DNA from: a virus
Taxonomy: Duplodnaviria; Heunggongvirae; Uroviricota; Caudoviricetes
DNA: 64,000 bases
Virus record (IMG/VR): IMGVR_UViG_3300046096_000179
Coordinates: 63,124 to 127,123 of that record
Reading direction: 5' to 3' (one strand)
Shown here: positions 1 to 51,671 of the stretch, one piece after another
Layout: each line of letters begins with the position of its first letter
How positions within the stretch are numbered: position 1 is the first letter of the stretch
Program-made: the position numbers and the translations under genes
Notes under the pieces: model-generated
Database searches by the model: none
Told to the model about the DNA's origin: nothing
Seen by the model: the letters and a program-made list of their open reading frames with translations, nothing else

Positions 1-29
1 TTGATAATTCTATAATTTCTGCAAACGGA

Positions 30-7741: not shown

Positions 7742-8086
7742 ATGCCCACCGTTCTGACCAAACTGAATGCATTGATTGACTGGATTGAGGGCAATACCAA
7801 AGCATACGTTGAATCTGAGTTGTCGCTGACCCATGATTCCGAATTCTGCCAGCGACGCATAAATGATGGCAAACATACCATTTGTCCCGGTAAGAAGTTT
7901 TTAAAGGTGGTTTCTGGTGGGTCTGTTCGATTCTTTGTTGATTCCAATACCGGCGACATCTACAAGGCAGCATCTTTCCGCGCTCCAGCAAAGGGCATCC
8001 GTGGAAATCTATTTTCTGACAAGGGTGGGCGTGAAGCATTCCAGTATGCTGGTTTGGGCTTGACTTTTGTAAATTATGCTCGCTAA
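7742..8086 (+). CDS. hypothetical protein (true start after the read-through promoter-leader)
   Basis: Track ORF 7661..8086 translates the cassette as ...GTYIM; real ATG is at 7742, after gtgctacaattcag...aaggaacctatatcATG. Confidence 0.55.
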   Translation: MPTVLTKLNALIDWIEGNTKAYVESELSLTHDSEFCQRRINDGKHTICPGKKFLKVVSGGSVRFFVDSNTGDIYKAASFRAPAKGIRGNLFSDKGGREAFQYAGLGLTFVNYAR

Positions 8087-8113
8087 GAATTATGTGATAC
8101 AATTCATTTCATC

Positions 8114-8329
8114 ATGAAACATCACATCACCCGCGTTCTTAAAGTTTACCCGACATATACTGGAATTGCTCCCCAAGAGCACTCGATTGTGGTCACCTAT
8201 GCCCGCCAGATTCGCCAGTGGGCGGGTAGCTATCATGATCAGGACGGCCACATCGTTGGGCATGCGGTTCTTGCCAAAACAAAAGAACTGGCAGTTGATG
8301 CCATTCGCCAGCAGCACGACATCCAATGA
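8114..8329 (+). CDS. hypothetical protein
   Basis: Short cassette tgtgatacaattcatttcatcATG upstream. Confidence 0.45.
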   Translation: MKHHITRVLKVYPTYTGIAPQEHSIVVTYARQIRQWAGSYHDQDGHIVGHAVLAKTKELAVDAIRQQHDIQ

Positions 8330-8880
8330 CCTACAAATCCCCACCTCGATCAAAACTATACTACATAGCCATTGGCGCAAAGAATTCCATTCGAGCATTC
8401 TTTGCTCGTCTAGAGTATCATTGGAATGGTGGTTACAAATGCCATTGTTGCGGTACGCTGATTCCGATTCACTATCACCATATTGAATCTGAAGTCAACG
8501 GTGAACGTATCATCATCTCCAACAATTCCAAGCATCTTTACTGTGCATATTGTTTGGGTACAAAGATCGAGTCATATTTCCGATACTCTGAACAGTTGGC
8601 TCCACTCCATGTAAATGAATGTGATTGGGTGCATCGACCGGCAAAGACGATTCGCATCATCTGGGGCACCGATCCAATCGCAAAACAACTCGATCTGGAT
8701 GTCAGGTTTGGTGGGCGTTGGTGGAACGGACATAACGCATGTCAAGAAGCATTCGTCAGAGCATTGATTCATTCAGAAGTTTCTTACATGACAATCGTGT
8801 GGGTTCATGATAAAAAGTCAGGCAAAATGAAGATGATTGACCGCAATGGGATAAAGGTGGGTAGTGATGGTAGTTGGTGA
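8326..8880 (+). CDS. hypothetical Cys/His-rich protein
   Basis: 184 aa with several CxxC and HxH clusters; ATGA-coupled to the upstream gene. Confidence 0.5.
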   Translation: MTYKSPPRSKLYYIAIGAKNSIRAFFARLEYHWNGGYKCHCCGTLIPIHYHHIESEVNGERIIISNNSKHLYCAYCLGTKIESYFRYSEQLAPLHVNECDWVHRPAKTIRIIWGTDPIAKQLDLDVRFGGRWWNGHNACQEAFVRALIHSEVSYMTIVWVHDKKSGKMKMIDRNGIKVGSDGSW

Positions 8881-9052
8881 ACTACCAAAGATTGGCGGGT
8901 CAGCGAATTTCGCGTTTGTTGTTGTCACTACACAGAAGTCGGCCGCAATTCTATTCTATCGCAAACCGAAGATACACAATCTCATCTTTGATTTGATCGA
9001 TCGACCAATCACAAGAATAATGTGGATGGTCATTGACAATGCGCGTGTCTGA
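8864..9052 (+). CDS. DLP-leader family small protein (MMVVGELPKI...)
   Basis: N-terminal leader variant; its stop TGA sits inside the TCTGA of the next member's leader. Confidence 0.5.
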   Translation: MMVVGELPKIGGSANFAFVVVTTQKSAAILFYRKPKIHNLIFDLIDRPITRIMWMVIDNARV

Positions 9053-9254
9053 ACTCCCGGTAACTAAGATGCCGTATCGTGCAAAAGAACCGATGCCAAC
9101 ATTTGAACATCGGTTCTTTGTTTATCGCATAGCTTCCATACCCATAAACATTGATTGGATTGGTAATTTGACTATACCAATTGACACTGCTCTTGACATC
9201 CACATTCACGCTTTGATCGAAAGGCTATACAATGAAACCAGCATACTTCGGTGA
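9039..9254 (+). CDS. DLP-leader family small protein (MRVSELPV...)
   Basis: Leader atgcgcgtgtctgaactcccg; TTG-extended in the track as 9033. Confidence 0.5.
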   Translation: MRVSELPVTKMPYRAKEPMPTFEHRFFVYRIASIPINIDWIGNLTIPIDTALDIHIHALIERLYNETSILR

Positions 9255-9450
9255 TTCCAAACATGATGGAATCTCAATCCAGTTCATTCGCAATACCCAG
9301 TCAGTCCACGTTTCTGGTTGGTATGATTCATTTGTTGGTATTGAAGGTGAGTGTATCGACCTGAAAGAGTTTCTGACTCGTATTGGCATCACCCAGAAAG
9401 ATGTTCTGAAAGTTTTTGCAGAAAAATCTACTACAGTGCAGAATCCGTGA
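9232..9450 (+). CDS. hypothetical protein
   Basis: 72-aa ORF. Confidence 0.4.
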   Translation: MKPAYFGDSKHDGISIQFIRNTQSVHVSGWYDSFVGIEGECIDLKEFLTRIGITQKDVLKVFAEKSTTVQNP

Positions 9451-9490
9451 TACAATAGAACCATCAAATCCACTACAAGGAAACTACATC
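9431..9490 (+). promoter_or_regulatory. promoter-leader cassette: extended -10 (TGaTACAAT) plus conserved 5'UTR and RBS
   Basis: ctacagtgcagaatccgtgatacaatagaaccatcaaatccactacaaggaaactacatcATG. Confidence 0.6.
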
Positions 9491-9754
9491 ATGAAATTTA
9501 CAATTACCGAAGCAGCAGCCATCTTGTCAAAGCAAATGGGGTATGACGTTGAAATCGTTTCTGATTCTGAATCAGACGAATGGGATGTCAACACACAGAC
9601 GATTGCAGAGTATCCGTATCCACTCAGCCATTCCGATAAAATCCACGTGATTTTTAGCGACGGGACGTCCGATACTGGCGTGGCAGATTCTTGGTCTTAT
9701 TCATGGGATACTACTGGAACGCTCCACATCGTCAAGTATCGCAAGTTGGATTGA
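9491..9754 (+). CDS. HIVKYRK-family small protein
   Basis: C-terminus SWDTTGTLHIVKYRKLD; one of five paralogues. Confidence 0.6.
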   Translation: MKFTITEAAAILSKQMGYDVEIVSDSESDEWDVNTQTIAEYPYPLSHSDKIHVIFSDGTSDTGVADSWSYSWDTTGTLHIVKYRKLD

Positions 9755-9755
9755 C

Positions 9756-9814
9756 TACAGTTGATTTTCTGTGATACAATAGAACCATCAACTCCAAACC
9801 AAGGAAACTACATC
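9756..9814 (+). promoter_or_regulatory. promoter-leader cassette
   Basis: ctacagttgattttctgtgatacaatagaaccatcaactccaaaccaaggaaactacatcATG. Confidence 0.6.
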
Positions 9815-10369
9815 ATGAAACACCGTGGAAACGCCGCAATACTTGAAACTGTTGATGAAGTAAACGAAGTATTTTGGGGACCTACGAACTGGGATTCTCG
9901 TCGGGGCGGTTTGAAGTGCGGTTACTATGCTGCTTATCATTGCCTTTCTTTACCCGATCATATTGCAGTAAATTTCGGAGTTGATTTTGCGACTAAGGCC
10001 CTTTCAGATTATTGGAATGCCTTGGATGGAGTCGAAGTTGGGTTCGCTCCGTTTGATTTTTATGACGGAGATGAATATACAAGGTACGAGAAAAAGACAC
10101 GCCACCAAGATGACCTCTATCTAAAAGCAGCTAAACACATCGCCAGTAAGGGAGTTGATTCGTTTGACATTCAGATTTCAAACGGGGAAAGTTATCGCGG
10201 TGTTAAATTCACGAACAGAGCTACTGGCAAGTCTTTCACGTTCAAAGATACGGTAGATTATTGTCTAACTACCGACGCAATCAATTTGTTTCGAGAGAAG
10301 GAATCGGCCACCATATCCCGCGAACTGAGTGATGATCTGTTGGACTTCACAACTGAAGAAGAGAGTTGA
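9815..10369 (+). CDS. hypothetical protein
   Basis: True start after the cassette; track ORF 9761 reads the cassette as CDTIEPSTPNQGNYIM. Confidence 0.6.
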   Translation: MKHRGNAAILETVDEVNEVFWGPTNWDSRRGGLKCGYYAAYHCLSLPDHIAVNFGVDFATKALSDYWNALDGVEVGFAPFDFYDGDEYTRYEKKTRHQDDLYLKAAKHIASKGVDSFDIQISNGESYRGVKFTNRATGKSFTFKDTVDYCLTTDAINLFREKESATISRELSDDLLDFTTEEES

Positions 10370-10494
10370 AATGAGCAAGATTAAACACACTTGGAACGCC
10401 TGCAAACCACCAGTTGCTGACGTGTACACAACTCGCCGAGGTTCCAGCGAGTTTTAGGGAGAAACTAGGTTTTTCATGGATTCTGGAATGAATA

Positions 10495-10551
10495 CAGATG
10501 ATGATTTGTGTTACAATCAATCCATCGAAACAAACCAAGGAAAAATACATC
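10495..10551 (+). promoter_or_regulatory. promoter-leader cassette (variant tgtgttacaat)
   Basis: tgtgttacaatcaatccatcgaaacaaaccaaggaaaaatacatcATG. Confidence 0.55.
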
Positions 10552-10962
10552 ATGAAACAAGTTTTTCAAGCTGACGACGGTAAAGTCTTTGAGACTCAAG
10601 CTGAGTGCGAGAAATATGAGTCTAAATCTGAGTTGTTCGACTTTGTTGACAGCAACATCGAGGCATCCTACAATGATGATGCCGGATACCATATCATCGA
10701 GACACAAAACGTAGTTGACTTCATTGAAGCACACTACGAGAAGATCGGTGAACTTCTTGGTAAAGTTAAGGTTGAAGATGATTGTTGGATCATTAACACA
10801 AAAACAACGGATGGTCGTCCAAGTACATTGAAAGTCGACGATTGTATTGAAGTTGAGTATGCCAATGGTGAACGAGTTCGATGCCTCGCTATAGCGTGGA
10901 CTGCTTTGTGGAACACCAAGAATCACATGCGACACATCGCCAAATACCGCAAGGTGAACTGA
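10552..10962 (+). CDS. HIVKYRK-family protein
   Basis: WIINTKTTDGRPSTL...MRHIAKYRKVN. Confidence 0.6.
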   Translation: MKQVFQADDGKVFETQAECEKYESKSELFDFVDSNIEASYNDDAGYHIIETQNVVDFIEAHYEKIGELLGKVKVEDDCWIINTKTTDGRPSTLKVDDCIEVEYANGERVRCLAIAWTALWNTKNHMRHIAKYRKVN

Positions 10963-10963
10963 A

Positions 10964-11206
10964 ATGAACAAGTTTAAAGAATTCGTTGCTTGGCTGATCG
11001 AAACAACAGACAACCACCAAGCTGATACTCTTACAAGAATCCTCTGCATCATACTTGTTTTGGCTACTGGTATGCTTGTGGCAGCGGTCTCACTTGCGTT
11101 ATTGATCAGGTTGATCGGGGTGTACCCAGTCATCATTCCAGTTCTGCTGTTCGTGGTTCTCCCAAGCTATCTTTGGGTCAAATTCTACAAAGGTGAATCA
11201 AAATGA
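10964..11206 (+). CDS. small membrane protein (2 TM)
   Basis: Hydrophobic segments ILCIILVLATGMLVAAVSLALLI and VIIPVLLFVVL. Confidence 0.55.
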   Translation: MNKFKEFVAWLIETTDNHQADTLTRILCIILVLATGMLVAAVSLALLIRLIGVYPVIIPVLLFVVLPSYLWVKFYKGESK

Positions 11207-11553
11207 ATTCAGTCGTCGTTAGTGTGATGTTGCTGATTGTCTGCGTTTCCGTCTTGATCGGAATGCTTGCTCATGTGGAAGACGCCCTATCAGATTCGGT
11301 CGAGATTCTGCTATCCATTGGTGTAGACATGGCATGCGTCTGGTGGTTGTGTGCAGTCATCTTTGACTGGGAACGATTGCTCCCATTGTTCTTTGTCAGT
11401 TCCCTCAGCATCTTCCTTGGCGGATTCTACCTGATCGGTCGGTTCTTCTTTGAGCGCAGTCTGTCTTTGGTACAAATTTTCAGAACCATTGCAGCCACAA
11501 CCATTGCAATTGCCGGGACAATCGGCTTGCTTGCAACAACTTACATCCAATGA
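11203..11553 (+). CDS. membrane protein (multi-TM)
   Basis: ATGA-coupled; several hydrophobic helices. Confidence 0.55.
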   Translation: MNSVVVSVMLLIVCVSVLIGMLAHVEDALSDSVEILLSIGVDMACVWWLCAVIFDWERLLPLFFVSSLSIFLGGFYLIGRFFFERSLSLVQIFRTIAATTIAIAGTIGLLATTYIQ

Positions 11554-11966
11554 AACAACAACTCATCATCGTCCGTGGCATCCCCGGTTCAGGTAAATCC
11601 ACATTCGCTGCTTCTTTGGGGATTCCACACTATGAAGCTGACCAATACTTTGTTGGTGAAGATGGCGTCTATCGGTTTGACTTCTCTAAACTCGGAGAAG
11701 CCCATCGCCAATGTCTTAGTTCGGTTGGTAAGGCGTTGTATTCCGGTAAGTCCGTTGTCGTCAGCAACACATTCACGACACTGAAAGAACTTCGACCATA
11801 TTTTGATGGAGCCAAAGAGTATGGGATTTGCCCCACGGTGGTTACTATGAACGGTAACTTTGGGTCAATTCATGGAGTTCCCGAGGATAAGATGCAGGCA
11901 ATGCGTGACAGATTTTGCCATGACATTGCGCCACTTTTCAAGGAATTTTTCGGAGTCGGGAAATGA
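11550..11966 (+). CDS. P-loop kinase (AAA_33-like ATP-binding protein)
   Basis: Walker A GIPGSGKST at the N-terminus; 138 aa. Confidence 0.6.
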   Translation: MKQQLIIVRGIPGSGKSTFAASLGIPHYEADQYFVGEDGVYRFDFSKLGEAHRQCLSSVGKALYSGKSVVVSNTFTTLKELRPYFDGAKEYGICPTVVTMNGNFGSIHGVPEDKMQAMRDRFCHDIAPLFKEFFGVGK

Positions 11967-12298
11967 AACCCGATGGATTTTTCCTATGCAATGGGATATA
12001 CTACAATTTTGTAGCATTTGCCGTTGCATCTTTTGATGCAATATCGCCAGATACATGGCGATTCATGAATGTTCACTACAGCGAACATTTCTTGGATGAT
12101 TGCTCTATGAATCATGACATATATTCGTTCTTTGATGACAAATACTGTGGATGGTTACTCAAGAGTGGGGTTGATATTGACAACCCGCATACGAATATGC
12201 GTTTGAAAATGTTGTCAAGTGATGATAAAATTACATTCATCCAAGTGTCATCCTTGGGTGAAGTTTTGTTTGAACGGAAAATGAATGAAGACTTATAA
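11963..12298 (+). CDS. hypothetical protein
   Basis: ATGA-coupled 111-aa ORF. Confidence 0.45.
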   Translation: MKPDGFFLCNGIYYNFVAFAVASFDAISPDTWRFMNVHYSEHFLDDCSMNHDIYSFFDDKYCGWLLKSGVDIDNPHTNMRLKMLSSDDKITFIQVSSLGEVLFERKMNEDL

Positions 12299-13428: not shown

Positions 13429-14409
13429 ATGTCAAACAACAAGTTAGGTGTTTTAATCGGAAGGTTCCAGCCTTTCCACGATGGTCACCTCTATGCAGCG
13501 AAGGTTGCTGCAAGTCAGGTAGATCGACTTCTGATTCTCGTTGGTTCAGCTAACGCATGTCGTTCAATCAAGAACCCATGGACATATCAAGAACGAGTCG
13601 ATAACATTCGCAAAATTCTTCGTCAAAATGACGTAAACAACGTCAGCTTCCAACCAATCAACGATCATCCATACAACGATCATCGTTGGATTACTGAAGT
13701 CATCGCAAGCATTGGTTATGTTGACTGCAAAGACGTTATTCTCTTCTCACCTTGGAAAGAAGGTAATGACTACCTGAAGTGGTTCCCCATGATGAAGAAC
13801 AGAAGCATTCCACAAGGCGCAATGGGGATGAATGCAACTGGAATCCGCGAGGCGATGTTTCGCGCCAATGATCCATCAATCCCCAAAACCGTTCAGGCTG
13901 ACTGGGATTACTATCAGAAGGAGGCTGAAAAGTTTTCTTCCTATCCATACCCCGAAACATTGAACTTCAACTGTGCAGATGCAGTTGTCGTATGTCTTGG
14001 TCATGTTCTGTTGATTGAACGCAAGCATGCTCCCGGTATGGGGTCGTGGGCACTGCCCGGTGGATTTAAGAATCGCGCTGAAACATTCCAGCAATGTGCC
14101 ATTCGTGAACTCCGAGAAGAAACAAATCTTCGTGTTCCAGAGAAGGTTCTGTTGGGTTCCATCACTGCTTCAAAAATGTTCGATAGTCCAAATCGCTCAT
14201 TTGGTATCAATCGCAATACAATGGCATTCTGTTTTGAATTAAAGCCAGATTCCGATGGTTCTTTACCACGAGCAAATGGTTCAGATGATGCAAATCAAGC
14301 GAAATGGTTTCTTCTCAGTGAAGTCATGAATGGTCTTATTTTATGGGAAGATCATAAAGCTATCATATCAGAATTAACGGGAATTCATCCAGATTTTGCT
14401 GCACGTTAA
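13429..14409 (+). CDS. natV: bifunctional NMN adenylyltransferase / ADP-ribose (Nudix) pyrophosphatase, NadM-Nudix
   Basis: N-terminal GRFQPFHDGH nucleotidyltransferase motif; C-terminal Nudix box GGFKNRAETFQQCAIRELREETNL; RBS aaggag. Confidence 0.85.
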   Translation: MSNNKLGVLIGRFQPFHDGHLYAAKVAASQVDRLLILVGSANACRSIKNPWTYQERVDNIRKILRQNDVNNVSFQPINDHPYNDHRWITEVIASIGYVDCKDVILFSPWKEGNDYLKWFPMMKNRSIPQGAMGMNATGIREAMFRANDPSIPKTVQADWDYYQKEAEKFSSYPYPETLNFNCADAVVVCLGHVLLIERKHAPGMGSWALPGGFKNRAETFQQCAIRELREETNLRVPEKVLLGSITASKMFDSPNRSFGINRNTMAFCFELKPDSDGSLPRANGSDDANQAKWFLLSEVMNGLILWEDHKAIISELTGIHPDFAAR

Positions 14410-14419
14410 CCCGATTGCA

Positions 14420-14463
14420 CGGCGGTTCCGTGCTACAATGTCATAACGAAGGAGTTTCAAAAC
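14420..14463 (+). promoter_or_regulatory. promoter-leader cassette variant (ccgtgctacaat)
   Basis: ccgtgctacaatgtcataacgaaggagtttcaaaacATG. Confidence 0.5.
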
Positions 14464-15844: not shown

Positions 15845-16108
15845 ATGAAAATCGAATCCAAAATCCAGACCCTTGGCGGCTTCGATGCCAATTGGACAGA
15901 CGAGCAGATCAAGAACGAACCGATGCTGTTCAATTGCAGTCTTGATGGTGCGCTTGCGCTTGGTGGCGACATCACGAAAGAATTTATCAAGTCTCTCTAC
16001 AAAACAGAAGCTGGTAAGAAAATCTTTGATGGCGATGTTGTGATTGATTCTCGCAGTCACATGCTGATGTCCGGTTGGTATTATTCAAATTCCGCAGCGC
16101 TTCCTTGA
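15845..16108 (+). CDS. hypothetical protein
   Basis: 87 aa. Confidence 0.5.
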   Translation: MKIESKIQTLGGFDANWTDEQIKNEPMLFNCSLDGALALGGDITKEFIKSLYKTEAGKKIFDGDVVIDSRSHMLMSGWYYSNSAALP

Positions 16109-18670: not shown

Positions 18671-18959
18671 TGCTGAAATTCTTAACATCAGCCAAGAAGA
18701 ATGTGCTGAGGTTATTGTGGCGATCTCCAAGATTCGCAGGTTTGGTCTGGATAGTGTTGATCCCAGAACAGACACCGGACAGACGAATCAAGATCATCTG
18801 GAGGAAGAAGTTGGAGACCTGATGGCAATGATTCGCCTGATGGAATTATCTGGTCTGATTCGGTTCGATAGGGTCGATACCGCAATGGAAGCCAAACTCA
18901 ACAAACTGAAGCTCTGGTCATCCATTGACAGGGAATTGCTGGATTATGCGAATAGCTGA
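18657..18959 (+). CDS. MazG-like nucleotide pyrophosphohydrolase (tentative)
   Basis: Small all-alpha protein with EExxEV...EEEVGDL acidic motifs. Confidence 0.4.
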   Translation: MNKSNAEILNISQEECAEVIVAISKIRRFGLDSVDPRTDTGQTNQDHLEEEVGDLMAMIRLMELSGLIRFDRVDTAMEAKLNKLKLWSSIDRELLDYANS

Positions 18960-19098
18960 CCTGCCAAAGATAACTAAACCACGGCGAGTGTTCAGTCGAA
19001 CAATATGGTATCCCGATATGCCATTCATCCAGACTTCTTTCATAATTGCTTGGCAAATCTCAGAGGTTCTTTCTGAAATCAACGATGGTTTTGAATGA
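18946..19098 (+). CDS. DLP-leader family small protein (MRIADLPKI...)
   Basis: Leader atgcgaatagctgacctgccaaagata; MazG-like stop TGA sits inside the leader. Confidence 0.45.
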   Translation: MRIADLPKITKPRRVFSRTIWYPDMPFIQTSFIIAWQISEVLSEINDGFE

Positions 19099-19249
19099 CT
19101 TACCGCGCATAAAGACTCCACACAAAAGAGTCTGGGGCGACATACTTTTTCTAACCAAAGGGTTTAGGTCTGAGTGGTACCAAGAAACAGGTGGTATGGT
19201 TTTGGATGTTGCTGAGGTGCTTGCTGAAATTTGCTATGATGTTGTCTGA
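19085..19249 (+). CDS. DLP-leader family small protein (MVLNDLPRI...)
   Basis: Leader variant. Confidence 0.45.
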   Translation: MVLNDLPRIKTPHKRVWGDILFLTKGFRSEWYQETGGMVLDVAEVLAEICYDVV

Positions 19250-19388
19250 CCTACCTAAGTTGAATGATACCAAACCGTTGTCATGCTTTCTTCTGATTAG
19301 ATTTGATCATGGGATTTACACGCATTTGAAGTTTGTTCGACAAGTGACATGGATGGCACGAAACATTGATGCTGCATTTGGATTATGA
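19236..19388 (+). CDS. DLP-leader family small protein (MMLSDLPKL...)
   Basis: Leader variant. Confidence 0.45.
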   Translation: MMLSDLPKLNDTKPLSCFLLIRFDHGIYTHLKFVRQVTWMARNIDAAFGL

Positions 19389-19573
19389 AGACTACTCACC
19401 TACCTAAGATCGACCCTGAGCAGTTTGAGCCACTGAATAAAAGTTGGTGGTCGCATAGATGGAGTGTATCCAACCCCATCATTCGTTTTCCGAGCATACT
19501 TGGGTTCTTCCTTGAACTCGCAAGAATGCGACAAACGATCCAAGACTCTATGGCTACAGTTAGAATTCCGTGA
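19385..19573 (+). CDS. DLP-leader family small protein (MKTTHLPKI...)
   Basis: Leader variant. Confidence 0.5.
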   Translation: MKTTHLPKIDPEQFEPLNKSWWSHRWSVSNPIIRFPSILGFFLELARMRQTIQDSMATVRIP

Positions 19574-21204: not shown

Positions 21205-21263
21205 CTACATTCCAGAATATGTGATATAATTCAACCATCAACTCCACTACAAGGAACTACATC
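21205..21263 (+). promoter_or_regulatory. promoter-leader cassette
   Basis: atatgtgatataattcaaccatcaactccactacaaggaactacatcATG. Confidence 0.55.
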
Positions 21264-21605: not shown

Positions 21606-21707
21606 CAAAACAAATCGGCTATGTTAAATTCAACATAGTTAGGCAAGGAATCATAATCTATCTTTAGTCGTTAAGTAGTTGACGAATTTAAGTTGTATAA
21701 TACTGTT

Positions 21708-21887
21708 ATGAAAAATACTGACTTGCCCACAATACAAGCCCACCATGGTCATGTATATTGGGATGATTTGTGGGTGGTTATTCGGAAAACCGAACGAGTT
21801 TTTGATGGTCAGTTTGGTACCACAATTGGTGCATACGTATATCAACATTTGTTTTTAAACGTCAATAATCAACTATGCGACAGCTAA
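21708..21887 (+). CDS. DLP-leader family (MKNTDLPTI...)
   Basis: First member of the main array; preceded by hairpin ctatgttaaattcaacatag and a TATAAT-like box. Confidence 0.5.
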   Translation: MKNTDLPTIQAHHGHVYWDDLWVVIRKTERVFDGQFGTTIGAYVYQHLFLNVNNQLCDS

Positions 21888-21914
21888 ATATAGTTCGGTG
21901 TTCTTTTTCATACC

Positions 21915-22079
21915 ATGAAAACATCTGACTTCCCAAAAATCATCAAGCCGCCAACGACCCAACGACTTCTATCCGATGTGATGCAATGTGTTTTCACTTG
22001 TCTTAATGGTAAAATGTTCGTCACGGGACAGATGATCAGAGTTCCAATCATGCGTACATTCGATAGCATCAATAAATGA
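21915..22079 (+). CDS. DLP-leader family (MKTSDFPKI...)
   Basis: Below the track threshold; coordinates approximate. Confidence 0.45.
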   Translation: MKTSDFPKIIKPPTTQRLLSDVMQCVFTCLNGKMFVTGQMIRVPIMRTFDSINK

Positions 22080-22273
22080 AACTCAGAGACTTACCGATGG
22101 TTCCCAACACGGTGCATGATGGTCTGAATGGTTATCGAGTCAGCACAGATGTTTCTATTGGTGGTGCATGGAGAGGATATTCTTCTGCTACTATGAGTAA
22201 CGACGGATGTTGTGCTTTCTTAGTTATTGATGAGACATTTGAAATGATTTTTGACGATTATGAAAACTACTGA
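22076..22273 (+). CDS. DLP-leader family (MKLRDLPMV...)
   Basis: aaATGAaac overlap with the upstream stop. Confidence 0.5.
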   Translation: MKLRDLPMVPNTVHDGLNGYRVSTDVSIGGAWRGYSSATMSNDGCCAFLVIDETFEMIFDDYENY

Positions 22274-22463
22274 CCTACCATTAAACAATCACATTGATGT
22301 GTTGAGCACCGATGATTTGTGGGTGGTTGTTGGAATTGTTAAAGGTGCCGTAGGGCTTGCCACCAAAAGGTTTGCCACCAAAAGGTTTTGGTTAGACCCG
22401 GTTTACTTCAAACTGGGATTGCCCGTTAGAAATCAAATTTTTAACTTGGCGTCAAAAGAATGA
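22260..22463 (+). CDS. DLP-leader family (MKTTDLPLN...)
   Basis: Leader atgaaaactactgacctacca. Confidence 0.5.
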   Translation: MKTTDLPLNNHIDVLSTDDLWVVVGIVKGAVGLATKRFATKRFWLDPVYFKLGLPVRNQIFNLASKE

Positions 22464-22639
22464 AGACTACTGACTTACCTTTACAATATCGGATTGATGT
22501 ACGGATTCGGTGGGGTGTTTTTTTGCGTGTTGAATACGCCGCAGAGGATGTCACCCAAACGTCTATGTTTGAGCCGGTTTACTTAAAACTGATATTGCCT
22601 GTTAGAACTCAAATTTTGCAGTTAGCTCCAAAAGAATGA
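22460..22639 (+). CDS. DLP-leader family (MKTTDLPLQ...); body paralogous to the previous member (PVYFKLGLPVRNQIFNLA vs PVYLKLILPVRTQILQLA)
   Basis: ATGA overlap. Confidence 0.45.
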   Translation: MKTTDLPLQYRIDVRIRWGVFLRVEYAAEDVTQTSMFEPVYLKLILPVRTQILQLAPKE

Positions 22640-22800
22640 AGACGAGTGAGCTACCTAAAATCAACAAGTCACCACCGATCTATTATCAGATGGTTGGATT
22701 CATAGTGACTGTTGTTTCGATGAATGAAACAGGCAAACTTCCAATGATTCTTGTTGGCGTCCATGAAAACGATTGGGTGGTGGCTGTCTTGAGTTGTTAA
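22636..22800 (+). CDS. DLP-leader family (MKTSELPKI...), hydrophobic body
   Basis: ATGA overlap; approximate end. Confidence 0.4.
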   Translation: MKTSELPKINKSPPIYYQMVGFIVTVVSMNETGKLPMILVGVHENDWVVAVLSC

Positions 22801-27078: not shown

Positions 27079-27261
27079 ATGCAAATAGAAAATCTACCCA
27101 CGATCCAAGAATGCTATACATCCGTAAGTGTTGGGTTGTGGGTAGTTCTTCGAGAAACAATTTTCAGCATGTCGGACGCCAACACGGTAGACTCTTTGGA
27201 TGACCCGTTGTATGTTGCGGTTGCTAGTGACGTCGATTGGGTGTTTAATGAAAACTACTGA
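27079..27261 (+). CDS. DLP-leader family (MQIENLPTI...)
   Basis: Downstream of the aactgtgatacaatacatac cassette. Confidence 0.45.
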   Translation: MQIENLPTIQECYTSVSVGLWVVLRETIFSMSDANTVDSLDDPLYVAVASDVDWVFNENY

Positions 27262-27415
27262 CCTTCCTGTTTTGGCACCAATTGTCTCTGGTGTATTGAA
27301 GGCTGATGCGTGGCATCATATCATCTGGGTATCAATGACCTCTACACCATGGGATAATCTTGGGAAGAAGGTGCGCGCTTCTCTGATTAAATTGATGCCG
27401 TATGATATCTTCTAA
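27248..27415 (+). CDS. DLP-leader family (MKTTDLPVL...)
   Basis: Leader. Confidence 0.5.
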   Translation: MKTTDLPVLAPIVSGVLKADAWHHIIWVSMTSTPWDNLGKKVRASLIKLMPYDIF

Positions 27416-27584
27416 TCTTCCACAAATCAAACTGCCACACGCCATGAACTGGTATGTACATCAAATGGATGCCGCAACAAGCGTGATGATGTTGAAATCC
27501 ATCAAGATTTGGGATGCTGTATACCAACAAGTTGATTGGGCTGTCTCTGACCATTTGTGGAGATTGACCGATGAAAACATCTGA
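27402..27584 (+). CDS. DLP-leader family (MISSNLPQI...)
   Basis: Leader variant. Confidence 0.5.
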   Translation: MISSNLPQIKLPHAMNWYVHQMDAATSVMMLKSIKIWDAVYQQVDWAVSDHLWRLTDENI

Positions 27585-27753
27585 CCTGCCACAAATCAGA
27601 TCATCCTACGGTGAAGTCTTTGGCGTTGGATTATGGGCAGTTCTTAGAAAAGTTGCTTCTGAAACTGACCTGTATATTGCAGCAGAAGAACGACCATGTG
27701 TTGTTGATGTAAATGTTGATCGGATTTTGTGGAATATTTACTACTTGTTATGA
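27571..27753 (+). CDS. DLP-leader family (MKTSDLPQI...)
   Basis: Upstream stop lies in accgATGAaaacatcTGA. Confidence 0.5.
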   Translation: MKTSDLPQIRSSYGEVFGVGLWAVLRKVASETDLYIAAEERPCVVDVNVDRILWNIYYLL

Positions 27754-27827
27754 AAACATCTGAATTATCAAAAAATCCAACTAAAACCAAGTCCTCTGAA
27801 CTTGTCATGGAGAGTAATCATTGGTAA
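27750..27827 (+). CDS. DLP-leader family, very short (MKTSELSKNPTKTKSSELVMESNHW)
   Basis: Approximate coordinates; may be a decayed member. Confidence 0.3.
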   Translation: MKTSELSKNPTKTKSSELVMESNHW

Positions 27828-27913
27828 TTCCTTTCCGTGGGGATTGGCTATAATAAAAGGTATTGATGCGGATGACTCGGGGTGGCAAGTTCTGAAACGA
27901 TTGGTTGGTAAAA

Positions 27914-28033
27914 ATGAAAATCTCTGACATACCGAAAATTGACCATGTGTTGTATAATACATGCGCCGCTTCTTGGTATGCCGGTGATATGGACGGCGCA
28001 TCATACGAGATGGTAAAAATAATCAAGATTTGA
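27914..28033 (+). CDS. DLP-leader family (MKISDIPKI...)
   Basis: Approximate coordinates. Confidence 0.35.
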   Translation: MKISDIPKIDHVLYNTCAASWYAGDMDGASYEMVKIIKI

Positions 28034-28101
28034 AATTTTGGTTACCAGCAAGTGGATTGGGCTGTCTCCGAGCATCTGTGGTATATTAGAGTTGATTGAA
28101 T

Positions 28102-28266
28102 ATGAAAACATCTGACCTGCCGAAAATCCAAGTTGAGAGCCAGAGTATTTTGAGCGTGTCGTGGAAAGCAATCATACCATGTCTGCCGTGGTCGAACGAT
28201 CCGTCAAATATGCGGCCGGACGTTCATTGTCACCTACGTTGGTTGATTAAGCATGAAAACCTCTGA
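28102..28266 (+). CDS. DLP-leader family (MKTSDLPKIQVE...)
   Basis: Stops at the TGA inside the next member's TCTGAC. Confidence 0.45.
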   Translation: MKTSDLPKIQVESQSILSVSWKAIIPCLPWSNDPSNMRPDVHCHLRWLIKHENL

Positions 28267-28456
28267 CCTACAATACATACAGAACATAGATAATGGTTAC
28301 TTGGATGACGCACCGTCGGACACTTACTTTGCAGTAGTCGAAGACTCCACATTATTTGGATACCAATCCCCTTACCTATGGGACTTGGTTGACGCAATTG
28401 ACGATCCATTATTTAAAATCGAAATTCACATCTATGACACCTACCATGATCAATAA
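28253..28456 (+). CDS. DLP-leader family (MKTSDLQYI...)
   Basis: Leader. Confidence 0.5.
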   Translation: MKTSDLQYIQNIDNGYLDDAPSDTYFAVVEDSTLFGYQSPYLWDLVDAIDDPLFKIEIHIYDTYHDQ

Positions 28457-28943: not shown

Positions 28944-29131
28944 ACAGCTATCGGTCATTGAACCATCAATGTCGTTTGTCAACATCAAAAAAAGAGTTGA
29001 CTCCATCTCCGGTAGGAGAGGGTTTGATTATGTTTCAAGGTCTTACCTATGGGTTGACATGATCAACGCGGATTTTGGTAGAGAACTTTTTACGGCGGTT
29101 CATTCGGCATTCAGTGGGTGCGTCCGTGGAA

Positions 29132-29302
29132 TTGAGTGAACTGCCGAAGTCTCATCAGTTAGCGGCGAGATTTGATGTAATTAGTCGCCCACTCGCTGGC
29201 GGCATTTTAAGCGCGATCATGGAGAATGAGCATAATGTATGGCGATGGGTGCGTTATCCGGTGCAGCAAGTTCTTGAACGGGTAAATGATGAAATCTTCT
29301 GA
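29132..29302 (+). CDS. DLP-leader family, TTG-start variant ((M)SELPKSHQ...)
   Basis: ttgagtgaactgccgaag matches the minus-strand TTG variant at 50357. Confidence 0.4.
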   Translation: MSELPKSHQLAARFDVISRPLAGGILSAIMENEHNVWRWVRYPVQQVLERVNDEIF

Positions 29303-29483
29303 CCTACCGAAAATACCAATCCCAAGAACCGGGTGGAATGTCTGTTTTGATGCGCATGTTTCGATGAATGACGCATTGGATGAATCATCTGGGATTGAGG
29401 TGCAGTCCGAAGTGATTAACAAAATCGCGTTTCCGGTCTTGGGTATCATGCGCCGGATTTGTGCCAGTACACCGAGTTCTTGA
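29286..29483 (+). CDS. DLP-leader family (MMKSSDLPKI...)
   Basis: Leader. Confidence 0.5.
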   Translation: MMKSSDLPKIPIPRTGWNVCFDAHVSMNDALDESSGIEVQSEVINKIAFPVLGIMRRICASTPSS

Positions 29484-29491
29484 ACGAGTGA

Positions 29492-29692
29492 ATGATGAAA
29501 TCTTCTGACCTGCCAACCATTGCTGTCCCTATCACGAACTTCCATGTTGTTCATGATGTATCAATCCTGTTTGGTGATTTTCTTGGTTTCGCCGAGTACG
29601 AAACATTTGATAAAATCAGAACGCCTGTGATGAATTCTTTGATTCCAACACTTTTTTCCATGGAACTCGAATTTTTAAGTTATAAAATATAA
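29492..29692 (+). CDS. DLP-leader family (MMKSSDLPTI...)
   Basis: Leader. Confidence 0.5.
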   Translation: MMKSSDLPTIAVPITNFHVVHDVSILFGDFLGFAEYETFDKIRTPVMNSLIPTLFSMELEFLSYKI

Positions 29693-29694
29693 CC

Positions 29695-30129
29695 ATGAAC
29701 CAACCCTACATTCAAAATGTTTCACGTCAGGCTCTTGCAACCGGTCAGCACCTCAGACCCAGTGACAATACAATTCTGATTCAGATTGCCGACTGTATTC
29801 AGGGATGCCCTACTCCAACACCCAACAATACCTTCGTTGAAATCCATCAGTTCAACTTCATGGACTCTGAGGAAGATGACCCAATGTTCCCACCAGAGGC
29901 AAAGATCACCACAGAACAAGCCAAGGAAATTGTTGGCATCCTTCGGAATGCATTGGCTAAAAATCAGAACGTGATTGTCCATTGCAATGCCGGTCTTTGT
30001 CGGTCAGGTGCTGTTGCTGAGGTTGGTGTCATGATGGGATTCACGGATACCTTTGCCACTAGGATTCCAAACCTGATGGTCAAGAAGTATCTGATGCGAG
30101 AACTTGGCTGGCTTTATGAAGATCGATGA
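29695..30129 (+). CDS. Cys-based protein phosphatase (dual-specificity/PTP-like, CX5R)
   Basis: VHCNAGLCRSGAV active-site P-loop. Confidence 0.7.
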   Translation: MNQPYIQNVSRQALATGQHLRPSDNTILIQIADCIQGCPTPTPNNTFVEIHQFNFMDSEEDDPMFPPEAKITTEQAKEIVGILRNALAKNQNVIVHCNAGLCRSGAVAEVGVMMGFTDTFATRIPNLMVKKYLMRELGWLYEDR

Positions 30130-30268
30130 CTTACCAAAGATTCACTTGAGTGAATGCAAAGACCTTGCACATTTGATTCGACTCCCACATGGAACATCTT
30201 CAATTGTGATGACTGTCAGCATGCGATGGTCGTTTAAAATCAATCATGCTCTTGGGTTTCGGTTGTGA
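30116..30268 (+). CDS. DLP-leader family (MKIDDLPKI...)
   Basis: Overlaps the phosphatase stop; approximate. Confidence 0.4.
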   Translation: MKIDDLPKIHLSECKDLAHLIRLPHGTSSIVMTVSMRWSFKINHALGFRL

Positions 30269-30447
30269 AAACCTATGAACTACCAAAAATCAATGCAAAA
30301 GACTGGAGCGTCGTAGAATTCTCCGTTACCTTTCTTGGAGGTCATGTTGGAGTTTCTGACTCTGGAGCGAAGCTAAAGACTTACAAAATCACCAATGAAG
30401 TTCACCAAAATTTCGGCGAAATTGTTAGAAACCTGTGGATTCTGTGA
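30265..30447 (+). CDS. DLP-leader family (GTG start; (M)KTYELPKI...)
   Basis: Leader; last member of the array. Confidence 0.45.
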   Translation: MKTYELPKINAKDWSVVEFSVTFLGGHVGVSDSGAKLKTYKITNEVHQNFGEIVRNLWIL

Positions 30448-48419: not shown

Positions 48420-49745
48420 CCTAACCGTCTTTAGCTGTTAGGAGGAATTGCGAAAGGGTAAATAGTGACATGGAACAACTCAAAGCATTCAAATATAGAA
48501 TCTATCCGACAGCAGATCAAATCAATCGGTTGTCACGGTTCTTTGGTGCAAAGCGTTGGGTCTATAATCACTTCTTGAAGTCTAACACTGAACGCTACAA
48601 AAATCAAGAGAAGCATCTATCTAATTTTGATTGTAACAAAGAAATCACATTCCTCAAGAAAAATGCTGATACATCTTGGTTGAAAGATGTTGACGATTGG
48701 GTCTTGAAACATGCTTCAGAGGACTTGGCAACAGCCTACAAAAACTTCTTTGCTTCTATTACTGGTAAGCGCAAGGGACCGAAAGTTGAACTCCCGACGT
48801 TCAAGAAGAAGTCAAACAGACAATCATACCGGACTCGCGGCGTGAAGGTTGATTTTGAAAATGGCACATTCACTGTGCCGAAAATCAAAAACATACCATG
48901 CAAGTTCCATCGACATTTCCTTGGAACTATCAAGAACGCAACCATCTCCAAAACTCCTGATGGGAAGTATTTCGTTTCATTCTTGGTTGATGCCAACGTC
49001 GCATTGCTGCCACAAACAGAGCGCGAAGTTGGCATTGACTTTGGGATTAAATCATTGGCGGTTCTATCCACCGGACATGAAATTCAGCCATTGAACACAC
49101 AGCTTGAGAAAATCAATCGAGCTATCAAACGTGCTCAGAGAATCCTTGCACGAAAAACAAAGGGTTCGACGAACAGAGAGAAGCAACGAGTATTACTGGC
49201 TAAATTATTTGCCCGGAAGACTCGAATACGCGAACACTATTATCACGAGATTTCGAGTTTTTTGGTCAAGAACTTTGATGCAATTTACTTGGAATCACTG
49301 AATATCAAAGGGATGATGAAGAACAGGAAACTGTCCAGAGCAATCCAAGAATGCTCGTGGTTTTCGCTGATCTCAAAAATATCATACAAATCCAACTTCT
49401 ACGGTAAGACCTTTCACCAGATTTCCAGATGGTTCCCATCATCCAAGACTTGTTCTTGTTGTGGGTTCAAACTGGACAAGTTAAGCCTTGACGTTCGTGA
49501 ATGGTCGTGCCAATCTTGTGGAACACATCATGATCGTGACCTAAACGCTGCCGTGAATATCCTATACCAAGGGCAGATGGATTTGTATGAACAAAAACAA
49601 CCGCAGGAAACAGGCGGTTTGGAACTAAAAATTCCATATTCCTTGCAGAAACATACCACTAAAATCGAGAGATCAGCGGAAGAAATTGCCGTTGTTGGTA
49701 TGTGGAGCAGGAAAGCCTAACAGTCTTTAGCTGTTAGGTAGTTTA
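48420..49745 (+). mobile_element. IS200/IS605-family insertion sequence carrying only tnpB (IS1341-like)
   Basis: Terminal palindromes cctaaccgtctttagctgttagg (48420..48442) and cctaacagtctttagctgttagg (49716..49738) flank an intact tnpB; same ends found on the MITE at 39144..39371. Confidence 0.7.
48470..49720 (+). CDS. tnpB: TnpB (OrfB_IS605 RNA-guided RuvC-like nuclease)
   Basis: N-terminal AFKYRIYPT...FG..RWVYN; RuvC-I GIDFGIK; RuvC-II YLESLN; zinc finger CSCCGFK...CQSCG; RuvC-III HHDRDLNAAVNI. Confidence 0.85.
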   Translation: MEQLKAFKYRIYPTADQINRLSRFFGAKRWVYNHFLKSNTERYKNQEKHLSNFDCNKEITFLKKNADTSWLKDVDDWVLKHASEDLATAYKNFFASITGKRKGPKVELPTFKKKSNRQSYRTRGVKVDFENGTFTVPKIKNIPCKFHRHFLGTIKNATISKTPDGKYFVSFLVDANVALLPQTEREVGIDFGIKSLAVLSTGHEIQPLNTQLEKINRAIKRAQRILARKTKGSTNREKQRVLLAKLFARKTRIREHYYHEISSFLVKNFDAIYLESLNIKGMMKNRKLSRAIQECSWFSLISKISYKSNFYGKTFHQISRWFPSSKTCSCCGFKLDKLSLDVREWSCQSCGTHHDRDLNAAVNILYQGQMDLYEQKQPQETGGLELKIPYSLQKHTTKIERSAEEIAVVGMWSRKA

Positions 49746-49897
49746 CTTTTGATGTTGTTTAGAGATTCATAGATGTCATCATACATTTTGCTACATTCTC
49801 GAATGAAGAAGTAGACTGTCGGCGGTGGTCTACCTACACGAAACCCCAATCGGAATGGCTTGACCCATCGACTACCGATTCTTGGTAGATCATTCAC
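49727..49897 (-). CDS. DLP-leader family (GTG start (M)NDLPRI...) ending ...KLPNS-stop inside the IS right-end palindrome
   Basis: Stop TAA lies in ctacctaacagcTAAagactgttagg (reverse complement of 49716..49745). Confidence 0.4.
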   Translation of the reverse strand: MNDLPRIGSRWVKPFRLGFRVGRPPPTVYFFIRECSKMYDDIYESLNNIKSKLPNS

Positions 49898-50043
49898 TCG
49901 CATTTGGTTGACCTTAATATTGACTCGATTTTGTTTTGCATGTCGTGCAAATCCTCACAGTAGCTTGGATAAGCAATCCTGTTGTCTATCTCAACTAGAA
50001 CGTTAACATAAACATGAATCTTAGGTAATTCAGAGGTCTTCAT
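49894..50043 (-). CDS. DLP-leader family (MKTSELPKIHVY...)
   Basis: ATGAAGACCTCTGA overlap with the upstream stop. Confidence 0.45.
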   Translation of the reverse strand: MKTSELPKIHVYVNVLVEIDNRIAYPSYCEDLHDMQNKIESILRSTKCE

Positions 50044-50194
50044 TGATTTTAACCAAGTTGACAGTTGACTCGTTGATACCAGCCCTTGCTACAGCACAAC
50101 CTCCCGGCGGTAACGGATAAGGCCACCACCATTGAATGAACAATAGCAATATACTATCGTGTTCGTGAATCTTTGGAAGGTCAGAAATTCTCAT
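50030..50194 (-). CDS. DLP-leader family (MRISDLPKI...)
   Basis: Internal start at M54 of track ORF 50030..50353. Confidence 0.45.
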   Translation of the reverse strand: MRISDLPKIHEHDSILLLFIQWWWPYPLPPGGCAVARAGINESTVNLVKINEDL

Positions 50195-50204
50195 TCGATT
50201 CGAT

Positions 50205-50357
50205 CTACGTTGAGACTGTATGGTTTGAGCCAACGAAATGTTCCATGATTCCAAAGAAAGTGGCTCGGAAATAAAGAATATTTCCACTACCACATACCTC
50301 TCCCATGACTTTAAATCTTGCCCAACCGGTATGACCGATCTTTGGTAGTTCACTCAA
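50205..50357 (-). CDS. DLP-leader family, TTG-start variant ((M)SELPKIG...)
   Basis: ttgagtgaactaccaaagatcgg, same as the plus-strand variant at 29132. Confidence 0.35.
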   Translation of the reverse strand: MSELPKIGHTGWARFKVMGEVCGSGNILYFRATFFGIMEHFVGSNHTVST

Positions 50358-50517
50358 TTTCACAATGCTTCGTCAAGTTGATTTTGGAATCCATCATCCC
50401 ACCCAATGCAAGTTTAAACATTGATATTCCGCCAATGTAGATGGTATACCCGATTCCGTGCTTTATATCCAAGGAAATACCATCTATGTGAATCTTTGGT
50501 ATTTCAGAAGTCTTCAT
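50350..50517 (-). CDS. DLP-leader family (MKTSEIPKI...)
   Basis: aaaATGAagacttctgaaatacc; ATGA overlap with the cupin gene stop. Confidence 0.45.
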   Translation of the reverse strand: MKTSEIPKIHIDGISLDIKHGIGYTIYIGGISMFKLALGGMMDSKINLTKHCEIE

Positions 50518-51063: not shown

Positions 51064-51228
51064 TCACAGAGAATCGCCCAATGCTGCTAACTGAAGCATA
51101 ATTGCTTTACCACCAAGGAGTTCTTTGGCTGCTATGCAATAGATGATGGTATTTTCAGAAAATGTAAACTTACATTCAAAAATGTCTTGGATGTGATAAT
51201 TGTTTGATGGCAGGTCACTCACTCGCAT
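51064..51228 (-). CDS. DLP-leader family (MRVSDLPSN...)
   Basis: Internal start M33 of track ORF 51064..51324. Confidence 0.45.
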   Translation of the reverse strand: MRVSDLPSNNYHIQDIFECKFTFSENTIIYCIAAKELLGGKAIMLQLAALGDSL

Positions 51229-51389
51229 TGGATTCAAGCTCTTCAATTCGATTTGCTGCTTCCTCCAGCAGTGAAGCCAACCGATCCGACTCTCCATTCT
51301 GGACAGACCGGCGACCAACAGCATTCTTACGAATTTCGGCTCGGATTCTTAGCTTCTGAACAAGAGATTGCGTATCAAATGGTGGGTAA

Positions 51390-51671
51390 TCACGACCAAC
51401 CATACTTTGCCTTCAGTTGAACGTAGGTTTTCCGATCAATCACTTCCTGCAAAAGATACCGTTGTGTATACTCAGTCATTTCTTCTGGCGTCATGTCTCG
51501 CTCACCACGAAAAGAAACCAATCCATGTTCAACATCATCAACCAACACGTTAGTCAATCCTTTATAACACATTTCATTCTTCACCGAAATGAAATTGTCA
51601 ATCGTTGCTGAGATGTCAGCACCAATTTCGATGTAGACGGTTTTGTAGTTACTGATTTTTGGATAGTTCAT
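51390..51671 (-). CDS. hypothetical protein
   Basis: 93 aa. Confidence 0.5.
   Translation of the reverse strand: MNYPKISNYKTVYIEIGADISATIDNFISVKNEMCYKGLTNVLVDDVEHGLVSFRGERDMTPEEMTEYTQRYLLQEVIDRKTYVQLKAKYGWS

Follow-up and report, generated by a model that had tools for sequence, protein, structure and literature searches.

Two small genes that overlap by 14 nt lie at 8.9-9.3 kb of the 64,000-nt stretch of viral DNA analyzed here (the window), behind an ORF rich in cysteine and histidine (Table 1). Each opens with a copy of a 26-nt leader, and the two junctions are built alike: the first gene (8867-9052) stops at positions +12 to +14 of the leader of the second (starting at 9039), just as the Cys/His-rich ORF stops within the leader of the first. 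An earlier note on this DNA had described two leader-family genes here, and both ORFs are indeed present and are true members of the family, with scores of 13.4 and 10.3 bits against a position matrix that was built without these two copies and then used to score them. The note began the first gene at GTG 8864 (MMVVGELPKI). The ORF is real, but the start is better placed at ATG 8867 (MVVGELPKI), because the spacing in the family is fixed as a start codon, three residues and then [DE]-L-P. Similarly, the coupling to the Cys/His-rich gene that the note pointed out stands insofar as the TGA of that gene lies inside the leader, but this is an ordinary junction of the family and no special functional link between the two genes is indicated. 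The Cys/His-rich ORF (8326-8880) has no significant match in Pfam, PHROG, NCBIfam or PDB sequences, and a protein identical to that of the second small gene is found in JGI metagenomes (entry P0007). Further upstream, an extended -10 promoter-like box (TGTGATACAAT) has the same core as a promoter cassette that is repeated 18 times in the window; judged by its sequence, this putative promoter is probably the start of a transcription unit at 8114-9450 that holds both genes.

The resemblance between the two leaders and the rest of the family is well beyond chance. A shuffled-sequence control, named beforehand in the earlier note as grounds for refutation, left the leader similarity at 8.9 kb significant: shuffled 64-kb windows yielded 0.027 matches per window at 13.4 bits and 0.13 at 10.3 bits, and with the added requirement of a 45-75-aa ORF and a stop at +12 the rate dropped to 0.007. 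Moreover, a six-frame search of the window for [DE]LP[KR][ILVM] gave 13 matches, each of them exactly four codons past an ATG or GTG, and the nucleotide pattern ATG-N8-TGA-N-YTN-CCN-N4-T occurs 17 times, as against 0.15 expected from shuffles.

Table 1. Positions of the leader-family genes and of associated features in the 64-kb window.
Feature	Position	Strand	Details
Extended -10 promoter-like box TGTGATACAAT	8093..8103	+	10 nt 5' of ATG 8114; putative, read from sequence
Upstream Cys/His-rich ORF, 184 aa	8326..8880	+	TGA stop 8878-8880 at +12..14 of first leader
Family member, 61 aa, MVVGELPKIGG...	8867..9052	+	13.4 bits, matrix without the 8.9-kb pair
Family member, 71 aa, MRVSELPVTKM...	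9039..9254	+	10.3 bits, matrix without the 8.9-kb pair
Cluster of the two genes above	starts 8867, 9039	+
4-member array	18946..19573	+	starts 18946, 19085, 19236, 19385
6-member array	21708..22800	+	starts 21708, 21915 (DFPKI variant), 22076, 22260, 22460, 22636
8-member array	27079..28456	+	starts 27079, 27248, 27402, 27571, 27750, 27914, 28102, 28253
3-member array	29126..29692	+	starts 29126 (GTG), 29289, 29495
2-member array	30116..30447	+	starts 30116, 30265 (GTG)
5-member array	49727..50517	-	starts 50517, 50363 (GTG), 50194, 50043, 49903
Single member, 54 aa, MRVSDLPSNNY...	51064..51228	-	matrix scan
Candidate divergent member, 62 aa, MVGRDYPPF...	51215..51403	-	ATG-N8-TGA geometry with upstream ORF

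By sequence, the pair is part of a previously undescribed family of tiny genes with at least 31 members in the window, all opening with variants of the nine residues M-[KR]-x-[ST]-[DE]-L-P-K-I with a constant spacing from the start. The count comes from a matrix scan over all start codons of the window on both strands, for which shuffled windows gave 0.05 matches per 64 kb scoring 12 bits or more. The members lie in seven clusters on both strands and together encode about 1,745 residues, or roughly 8% of the window. All but two are 49-72 aa long, the exceptions being the truncated members 27750 (25 aa, shortened relative to the related contig L056) and 27914 (39 aa). An ORF would stay open for 49 codons by chance with a probability of only about 0.064 at this base composition, so the reading frames of these 29 of 31 genes must be maintained. 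A divergent candidate at 51215..51403 ends inside the leader of member 51228 and is counted apart from the 31. The earlier note had counted two copies at 8.9 kb and four at 18.9 kb, a large underestimate, and had contrasted a "satellite" pair with a "main array". These terms are misnomers, as the 18.9-kb cluster is not the main one and the largest are those at 27.1-28.5 kb (eight members) and 21.7-22.8 kb (six members). It had proposed a scan of the whole genome for the 26-nt leader on both strands; within the 64-kb window, a scan of both strands gave the 31 copies. One of its two explanations for the scattered copies, that the family is genome-wide, agrees with these 31 copies in seven clusters and with the further copies on each contig that is closely enough related (L030, L037, L039, L042 and L050).

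The geometry at 8.9 kb recurs throughout the family. Among 27 members, the stop codon of the preceding ORF falls within the first 14 nt of the gene in 21, comprising 15 at +12 to +14, five ATGA overlaps and one TGA at +8. The preceding ORF may be another member or an unrelated gene, such as the Cys/His-rich ORF at 8.9 kb, a MazG-like gene (18657-18959) before the array 18946..19573, a 102-aa ORF (28831-29139) before 29126..29692 and a phosphatase-like gene (29695-30129) before 30116..30447. Most members lack a Shine-Dalgarno sequence of their own: the anti-Shine-Dalgarno pairing energy at family starts has a median of -3.1 kcal/mol, as against -2.2 at random positions, and genes that stand alone after the promoter cassette have an AAGGA motif, with energies of -5.4 to -8.7 kcal/mol. 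Folding of the region from -40 to +70 of the 31 members revealed no common hairpin and only flat pairing probabilities. A terminator scan picked up a few hairpins at leaders, each of them idiosyncratic. Given the general lack of Shine-Dalgarno sequences, the missing conserved fold and the upstream stop within the leader, the most economical reading is that the members are translated by termination-reinitiation coupling. A prfB-like +1 frameshift at UGA-C, by which successive ORFs would be fused, was rejected because the P-site bases 9-11 are unconserved and offer no re-pairing, and because the ATG or GTG start is invariant. The use of TGA as a sense codon was ruled out in turn, since reading with table 11 leaves long conserved genes intact.

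With respect to transcription, the sigma-70-like promoter cassette, (C/T)GTGATACAATAGAACCATCAA...AAGGAA(A/C)CTACATC-ATG, is present in 18 copies in the window at no more than three mismatches. These cassettes flank the arrays, which lie inside or at the end of cassette-headed transcription units, and some last members stop at a TGA inside the next cassette, as does that of the array 18946..19573 (TGA at 19571-19573). The T4 late-promoter consensus TATAAATA is not found near the arrays, and its one match in the 64 kb (minus strand, 21589-21596) is at chance level. The arrays would appear to be expressed early or midway through infection.

A comparison of 56 leaders in all, those of relatives included, exposes two constraints on the 26-nt leader, one at the level of protein and the other at the level of nucleotides. 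Codon 8 is AAR (Lys) in 27 cases and AAY (Asn) in none, codon 9 is ATH (Ile) in 30 and ATG in one, and the leader leucine and proline make use of all six and all four of their codons, respectively. This discrimination of Lys over Asn and Ile over Met implies selection on the leader peptide. At the nucleotide level, T occupies base 12, the wobble position of codon 4 (itself variable), in 25 of 27 members from the window, where phage codon usage would predict 9.3, and in 49 of 56 leaders when relatives are included; wobble bases 9 and 27 are random. Together with G13 and A14, this T forms a TGA (twice a TAA) in the +2 frame at +12 to +14. The T is also retained in nine of the 12 leaders whose stop is used by no long upstream ORF, and the stop codon may therefore be an incomplete explanation for it. 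Moreover, CTA and TTA, the rarest leucine codons of the phage, encode the invariant leucine in 62% of leaders versus 11% genome-wide, which hints at a further constraint on the RNA or DNA. The leader is thus more than repeated DNA, as it also serves as start codon, selected N-terminal peptide and upstream stop. Immediately behind the motif, proline makes up 8.9% of residues 10-14 as against 3.9% further on, and this stretch is probably extended.

The bodies that follow the leader are much less conserved. Mean column identity past the leader is 11-17%, leaving the sequences almost unalignable, and the features that recur are a middle part that is hydrophobic and an amphipathic helix at the C-terminus. 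That the genes code for protein is borne out by eight pairs of orthologs from the window and related contigs, with dN/dS values of 0.10-0.78 (pooled 0.46), of which those near 0.8 indicate weak constraint on the bodies in question. AlphaFold2 models of two members, both of low confidence (pLDDT about 66, pTM about 0.3), place a helix at the C-terminus of each and a beta-hairpin before it in one; for member 8867-9052 the predicted helix is long (residues 34-60), with a pLDDT of 78-90 there and a mean of 65 overall. A fold search with a model of this low confidence found no match in the PDB, and no family member has a match in Pfam, PHROGs or NCBIfam. Profile searches returned only seven proteins from 5.8 billion clusters (E up to 10), all of the same lineage, and 12 when 1.84 billion representatives were searched exhaustively (E up to 0.001), most of them again from the lineage. 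The other matches in the latter search include two proteins whose internal repeats hold a similar peptide. A protein of the type found in Pelagibacter phage HTVC027P, 63-68 aa long and starting MKMDDLPKINCT, was set aside as a coincidence, since no link between it and the family emerged from the profile search. Literature searches likewise yielded nothing relevant on the motif or on comparable families.

Judged by its genes, the source of the window is a distant T4-like phage, with a GC content of 44.5%. The window encodes a T4-type DNA polymerase whose best tblastn identity is about 40%, to cyanomyophages, as well as a tail tube protein and a DnaB-like helicase that point in the same direction, and gp2-like and baseplate genes further mark the T4-like lineage. 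Other contigs of the lineage carry an ADP-ribosyltransferase-like gene and one for a UvsX recombinase. Genes for NAD salvage, a TnpB-type transposase and homing-endonuclease-like genes are found as well. The 4 kb around the 8.9-kb pair (8000-12000) have no nucleotide match in 50,697 GenBank phage records. Essentially the same DNA is present in JGI metagenomes, for example on a 90.6-kb contig with 99.99% identity across 15 kb, and the Logan assemblies contain DNA essentially identical to the window. IMG/VR yielded no match to a strict leader pattern and 33 single matches to a looser one, with several members only on L030, and multi-copy loci in these scans were confined to a handful of contigs that share the promoter cassette (L030 and L042, L037 and L039, and L050). 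A metagenome scan with a promoter 21-mer of the lineage returned only four short contigs. By these searches, the family counts as an orphan and its lineage as rare.

Comparison of the window with its relatives shows that variation is frequently bounded by leaders. Contig L056 is 99.6% identical to the window across 6.6 kb, but has unrelated or strongly diverged sequence in place of the block 27934-28251; identity stops just past the conserved part of leader 27914 and is back one base before the leader of member 28253. On L037, identity is 87% up to and across the leader of member 50043 and breaks down directly after the proline codon of that leader, and the array orthologous to 49727..50517 has one extra member at this breakpoint. 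L042 carries different members between conserved flanks at 21.4-22.3 kb, with one endpoint at a leader. Altogether, four of six mapped breakpoints fall at leaders, which make up about 15% of array sequence. Entire arrays are also present or absent at the same locus among relatives, as on L039, where a five-member array follows the ortholog of gene 45383-45865 and the window has other genes. Differences between near-identical population variants in blocks that end exactly at leaders support leader-mediated exchange of cassettes, and the suggestion in the earlier note that the leader module spreads by recombination is supported by the block ends on L056, the collapse on L037 and the gain or loss of arrays between relatives. 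Individual members seem to be dispensable, since in otherwise near-identical genomes member 22076 has lost 29 nt within its ORF (L058) and the copy at 27750 is truncated.

The reading that we favor, and consider reasonably probable, is that of a rapidly diversifying, lineage-specific family of small proteins in accessory (hyperplastic) regions, host-interaction effectors that share an N-terminal motif and whose leader does three jobs. The leader first supplies the start codon and the selected peptide, behind which comes a rapidly evolving body, most often with an amphipathic helix at its end. It also contains the out-of-frame stop of the preceding ORF, mostly as a TGA at +12 to +14 or as ATGA, through which the downstream gene is probably translated by termination and reinitiation, and expression of entire arrays would start at the sigma-70-like cassettes upstream of them, probably in the early phase of infection. 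Lastly, the leader could act as a patch of homology for the duplication, deletion and exchange of cassettes, driven by the homologous recombination of the phage itself, for which the lineage has a UvsX gene. The proteins would most likely be dispensable and individually variable effectors, involved in host takeover or anti-defence, with a single short linear motif at the N-terminus by which they dock on a common partner or are delivered to it. The fixed distance of the motif from the N-terminus and the proline-enriched stretch behind it fit such a motif. A bolder form of this reading, which we hold to be unlikely, is a recombinase-free cassette system set in coding sequence, in which a dual-coded module of 26 nt provides the start, the upstream stop, the homology for exchange and an N-terminal address tag that sends more than 30 interchangeable mini-effectors to one destination, be it the capsid (for injection) or a single host hub.

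That the destination is specifically the capsid, with the nonapeptide as a targeting signal like that of the T4 internal proteins and the products loaded into proheads and, as a varied arsenal against defences, injected along with the DNA, is in our judgment rather unlikely. The phage is T4-like, member sizes resemble that of IPI, and many members start with MKT, one of them with MKTYE, the T4 capsid signal being MKTYQEFIAE. Yet no conserved prohead-protease site is apparent ([LIVM]-x-E occurs in residues 6-20 of nine of 54 members, compared with 9.2 expected from shuffling), none of the arrays has a T4-type late promoter nearby, the proteins are fairly hydrophobic, rich in Trp and on average close to neutral rather than highly charged, and more than 30 copies in 64 kb is far above known internal-protein loci. 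The N-terminal peptide might instead be a tag for degradation or for a host hub, for instance an N-terminal degron of ClpXP, giving the proteins a short half-life or recruiting them to one host machine. ClpX does recognize three classes of N-terminal degron, the lambda O tag among them (PMC12723719). Such a tag would suit a motif whose spacing from the free N-terminus is the same in all members and which is followed by a proline-enriched and probably extended stretch. The N-motif-1 class follows the pattern polar, T or hydrophobic, hydrophobic, basic, hydrophobic, to which D-L-P-K-I may bear a loose resemblance. The proline at the third position, however, falls outside this pattern; the nucleotide constraint ATG-N8-TGA accounts equally well for the fixed spacing, and we regard a degron or hub tag as quite improbable.

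Alternatively, the leader could be purely an element of nucleic acid, such as a recombination site, a coupling junction or an operator, with the ORFs as near-neutral selfish or junk passengers. The T at base 12 and the CTA/TTA bias do amount to conservation of nucleotides beyond what the protein needs, the varying segments end at leaders, copies with frameshifts or deletions are found among near-identical genomes, and the bodies have diverged almost past alignment with some dN/dS values near 0.8. Against these observations stand the Lys/Asn and Ile/Met discrimination, which signals selection on the peptide, the ORF length held at 49-72 codons, the pooled dN/dS of 0.46 with values down to 0.10, the recurrence of the C-terminal helix and the lack of a conserved RNA fold around the leader; accordingly, we give this explanation a low probability. 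It is very improbable indeed that the genes are RiPP precursors, in which a modifying enzyme reads a conserved leader attached to a hypervariable core. A conserved N-terminus, a variable remainder and many tandem paralogs are what multi-precursor RiPP loci generally display, but here the conserved part is just nine residues, the C-terminal part is a predicted helix and not a core rich in Cys, Ser or Thr, and the arrays are scattered over unrelated operons. The neighbors examined, which are MazG-like, phosphoesterase-like, phosphatase-like, NAD-salvage and homing-endonuclease-like genes, include no modifying enzyme family.

Several known systems resemble the family, which is a member of none of them; the closest in design is that of the T4 internal proteins with their capsid targeting sequence. 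IPI, IPII and IPIII of T4 and their T-even variants are small unrelated proteins with an N-terminal tag of about 10 residues, whose genes lie in variable regions and turn over between relatives (PMC3012670). Both are sets of otherwise unrelated small proteins of T4-type phages that share a short N-terminal tag and are encoded in variable regions. The motifs differ, as the invariant [DE]-L-P core is absent from the T4 tag and the sharing is limited to an MKT or MKTY start in some members. The family is further set apart by its lack of a protease cleavage site or late promoter, by about ten times more copies and by tag DNA that also encodes an upstream stop codon. In bacterial and phage operons, overlaps of the ATGA or TAATG type couple translation by placing the upstream stop across the downstream start region. 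Family starts likewise overlap an upstream stop and mostly have no Shine-Dalgarno sequence of their own, but their dominant overlap is 14 nt (ATG-N8-TGA), it is conserved in a repeated module, and leaders retain the out-of-frame stop even if it is not in use at present. Integron arrays consist of small, promoterless, interchangeable cassettes with a short conserved site and an upstream promoter. The arrays described here are, by analogy only, also made of small promoterless cassettes delimited by a short conserved site; unlike integrons, they show no integrase or attC-like folded site, the site is coding, and exchange would proceed via general homologous recombination. If the tag and cassettes do work together as a delivery system, the phage would reshuffle its anti-host arsenal much as integrons reshuffle resistance genes.

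About 8% of a stretch of T4-like genome is thus devoted to one family of mini-proteins that is absent from database families. As the nonapeptide is under clear selection, something must read it, and naming that reader, whether a scaffold, a protease or a host hub, would give a role to dozens of ORFans at once. The nonapeptide could also become a portable tag for phage engineering, as the capsid-targeting sequence of T4 did. Even if the proteins prove to be near-neutral passengers, the family would be a useful natural model of the birth and death of cassettes. The dual-coded junction, which combines a start, an out-of-frame stop and homology for recombination, illustrates how phages may keep accessory genes modular with no intergenic space.

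In this respect the family extends into coding sequence an idea of modular shuffling that was developed for PeSL (promoter-early stem-loop) cassettes, short repeats in the hyperplastic regions of T4-type phages that lie at the endpoints of indels and replacements between close relatives (PMC2839356, PMC4122927). The leader, too, is a short repeat that coincides with replacement endpoints (both ends on L056 and one each on L037 and L042). In contrast to PeSLs, it is translated and lies inside coding sequence, links genes translationally and not transcriptionally, and is devoid of promoter hexamers, a terminator or a conserved stem-loop. The phage additionally possesses an intergenic element comparable to a PeSL, namely the promoter cassette with its 18 copies in the window.

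A cassette combining a promoter with a 5'UTR (GTGATACAATAGAACCATCAA...AAGGAA(A/C)CTACATC-ATG) recurs 18 times in the window at three or fewer mismatches, where 0.08 copies would be expected; copies on both strands are listed in the table. The same cassette is common to the window and related contigs, a conserved CTACAGT box lies upstream of it, and the TGA within its GTGATACAAT portion is the stop codon of some ORFs (9450, 19573). It looks like the counterpart, in this phage lineage, of the PeSL (promoter-early stem-loop) cassettes that mediate module shuffling in the hyperplastic regions of T4-type phages.

Coordinates of cassette copies, start-proximal -10 boxes and two coding regions in the window
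Feature	Position (nt)	Strand	Basis
Promoter-plus-5'UTR cassette, among the 18 copies	9447, 9771, 15807, 17366, 19570, 35838	+	
Promoter-plus-5'UTR cassette, among the 18 copies	47817, 52060, 53829, 54478, 55864, 56512	-	
-10 box close to ATG, no SD	8098-8116; 21693-21710		sequence
-10 box close to ATG, no SD	starts 57240, 57959, 58357	-	sequence
62-aa ORF, begins MVGRDYPPF	51215-51403	-	
TnpB-type transposase gene, 416 aa	48470-49720	+	

Several window genes, among them the one that opens the 21.7-kb array of leader-bearing ORFs, carry a -10 box (TACAAT or TATAAT) just 6-10 nt 5' of the ATG and have no SD, an arrangement that suggests leaderless or near-leaderless mRNAs.

The geometry that typifies the leader family also occurs beyond its established members. 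At 18657-18670, a phosphoesterase-like gene overlaps a downstream MazG-like gene by 14 nt, placing a TAA at +12..14 of the latter's start, and the ATG-N8-stop arrangement is therefore present at a non-family junction too. The ORF beginning MVGRDYPPF, which has the same 14-nt overlap with the ORF upstream of it and a 3' end inside the leader of the single member at 51228, is possibly a degenerate family member. Within the leader itself, the invariant Leu (leader base 18) is encoded by CTA or TTA in 33 of the 53 Leu-bearing leaders across all members. No Leu codons are rarer in this phage, whose long genes use the two for ~11% of their Leu residues, and neither protein selection nor the out-of-frame stop accounts for the excess.

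The N-terminal motif of the family is also found in an unrelated phage group. Seven IMG/VR contigs of 34-37% GC (L010, L011, L014, L015, L026, L032 and L033) encode a conserved single-copy protein of 63-68 aa beginning MKMDDLPKINCT or MKMVDLPKINCT, which shares 68% identity with a hypothetical protein encoded by Pelagibacter phage HTVC027P. Because a profile search gave no link between this protein and the leader family, the match is probably coincidental.

Comparison with related contigs that hold family copies identified an insertion and a probable exchange. In L037, the minus-strand array directly adjoins the ortholog of window gene 47856-48401, which in the window is separated from the array by the TnpB-type gene; this element is thus an insertion in the window's genome, and a 68%-identical copy occupies another location in L030. 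Positions 2611-2777 of L042 are 100% identical over 167 nt to window positions 21261-21427 (the 5' part of gene 21264-21605, including its SD) inside non-alignable flanks, a pattern that points to a recent mosaic exchange between relatives that have diverged elsewhere.

The window also holds an internal duplication of ~415 nt (24523-24958 vs 26593-27001, ~79.5% identity). Its two copies take in the 5' end of one minus-strand gene each (24292-24858 and 25646-26902), together with the sequence upstream of that gene. Precomputed Pfam annotation lists DUF7487 for both, and the longer, 25646-26902, matches homing endonucleases in PHROGs. A GIY-YIG endonuclease gene (16081-16902) lies close to, and on the opposite strand from, an NAD-salvage pair within 13429-15786, whose products are a 326-aa NMNAT/Nudix fusion and a 440-aa nicotinamide phosphoribosyltransferase.
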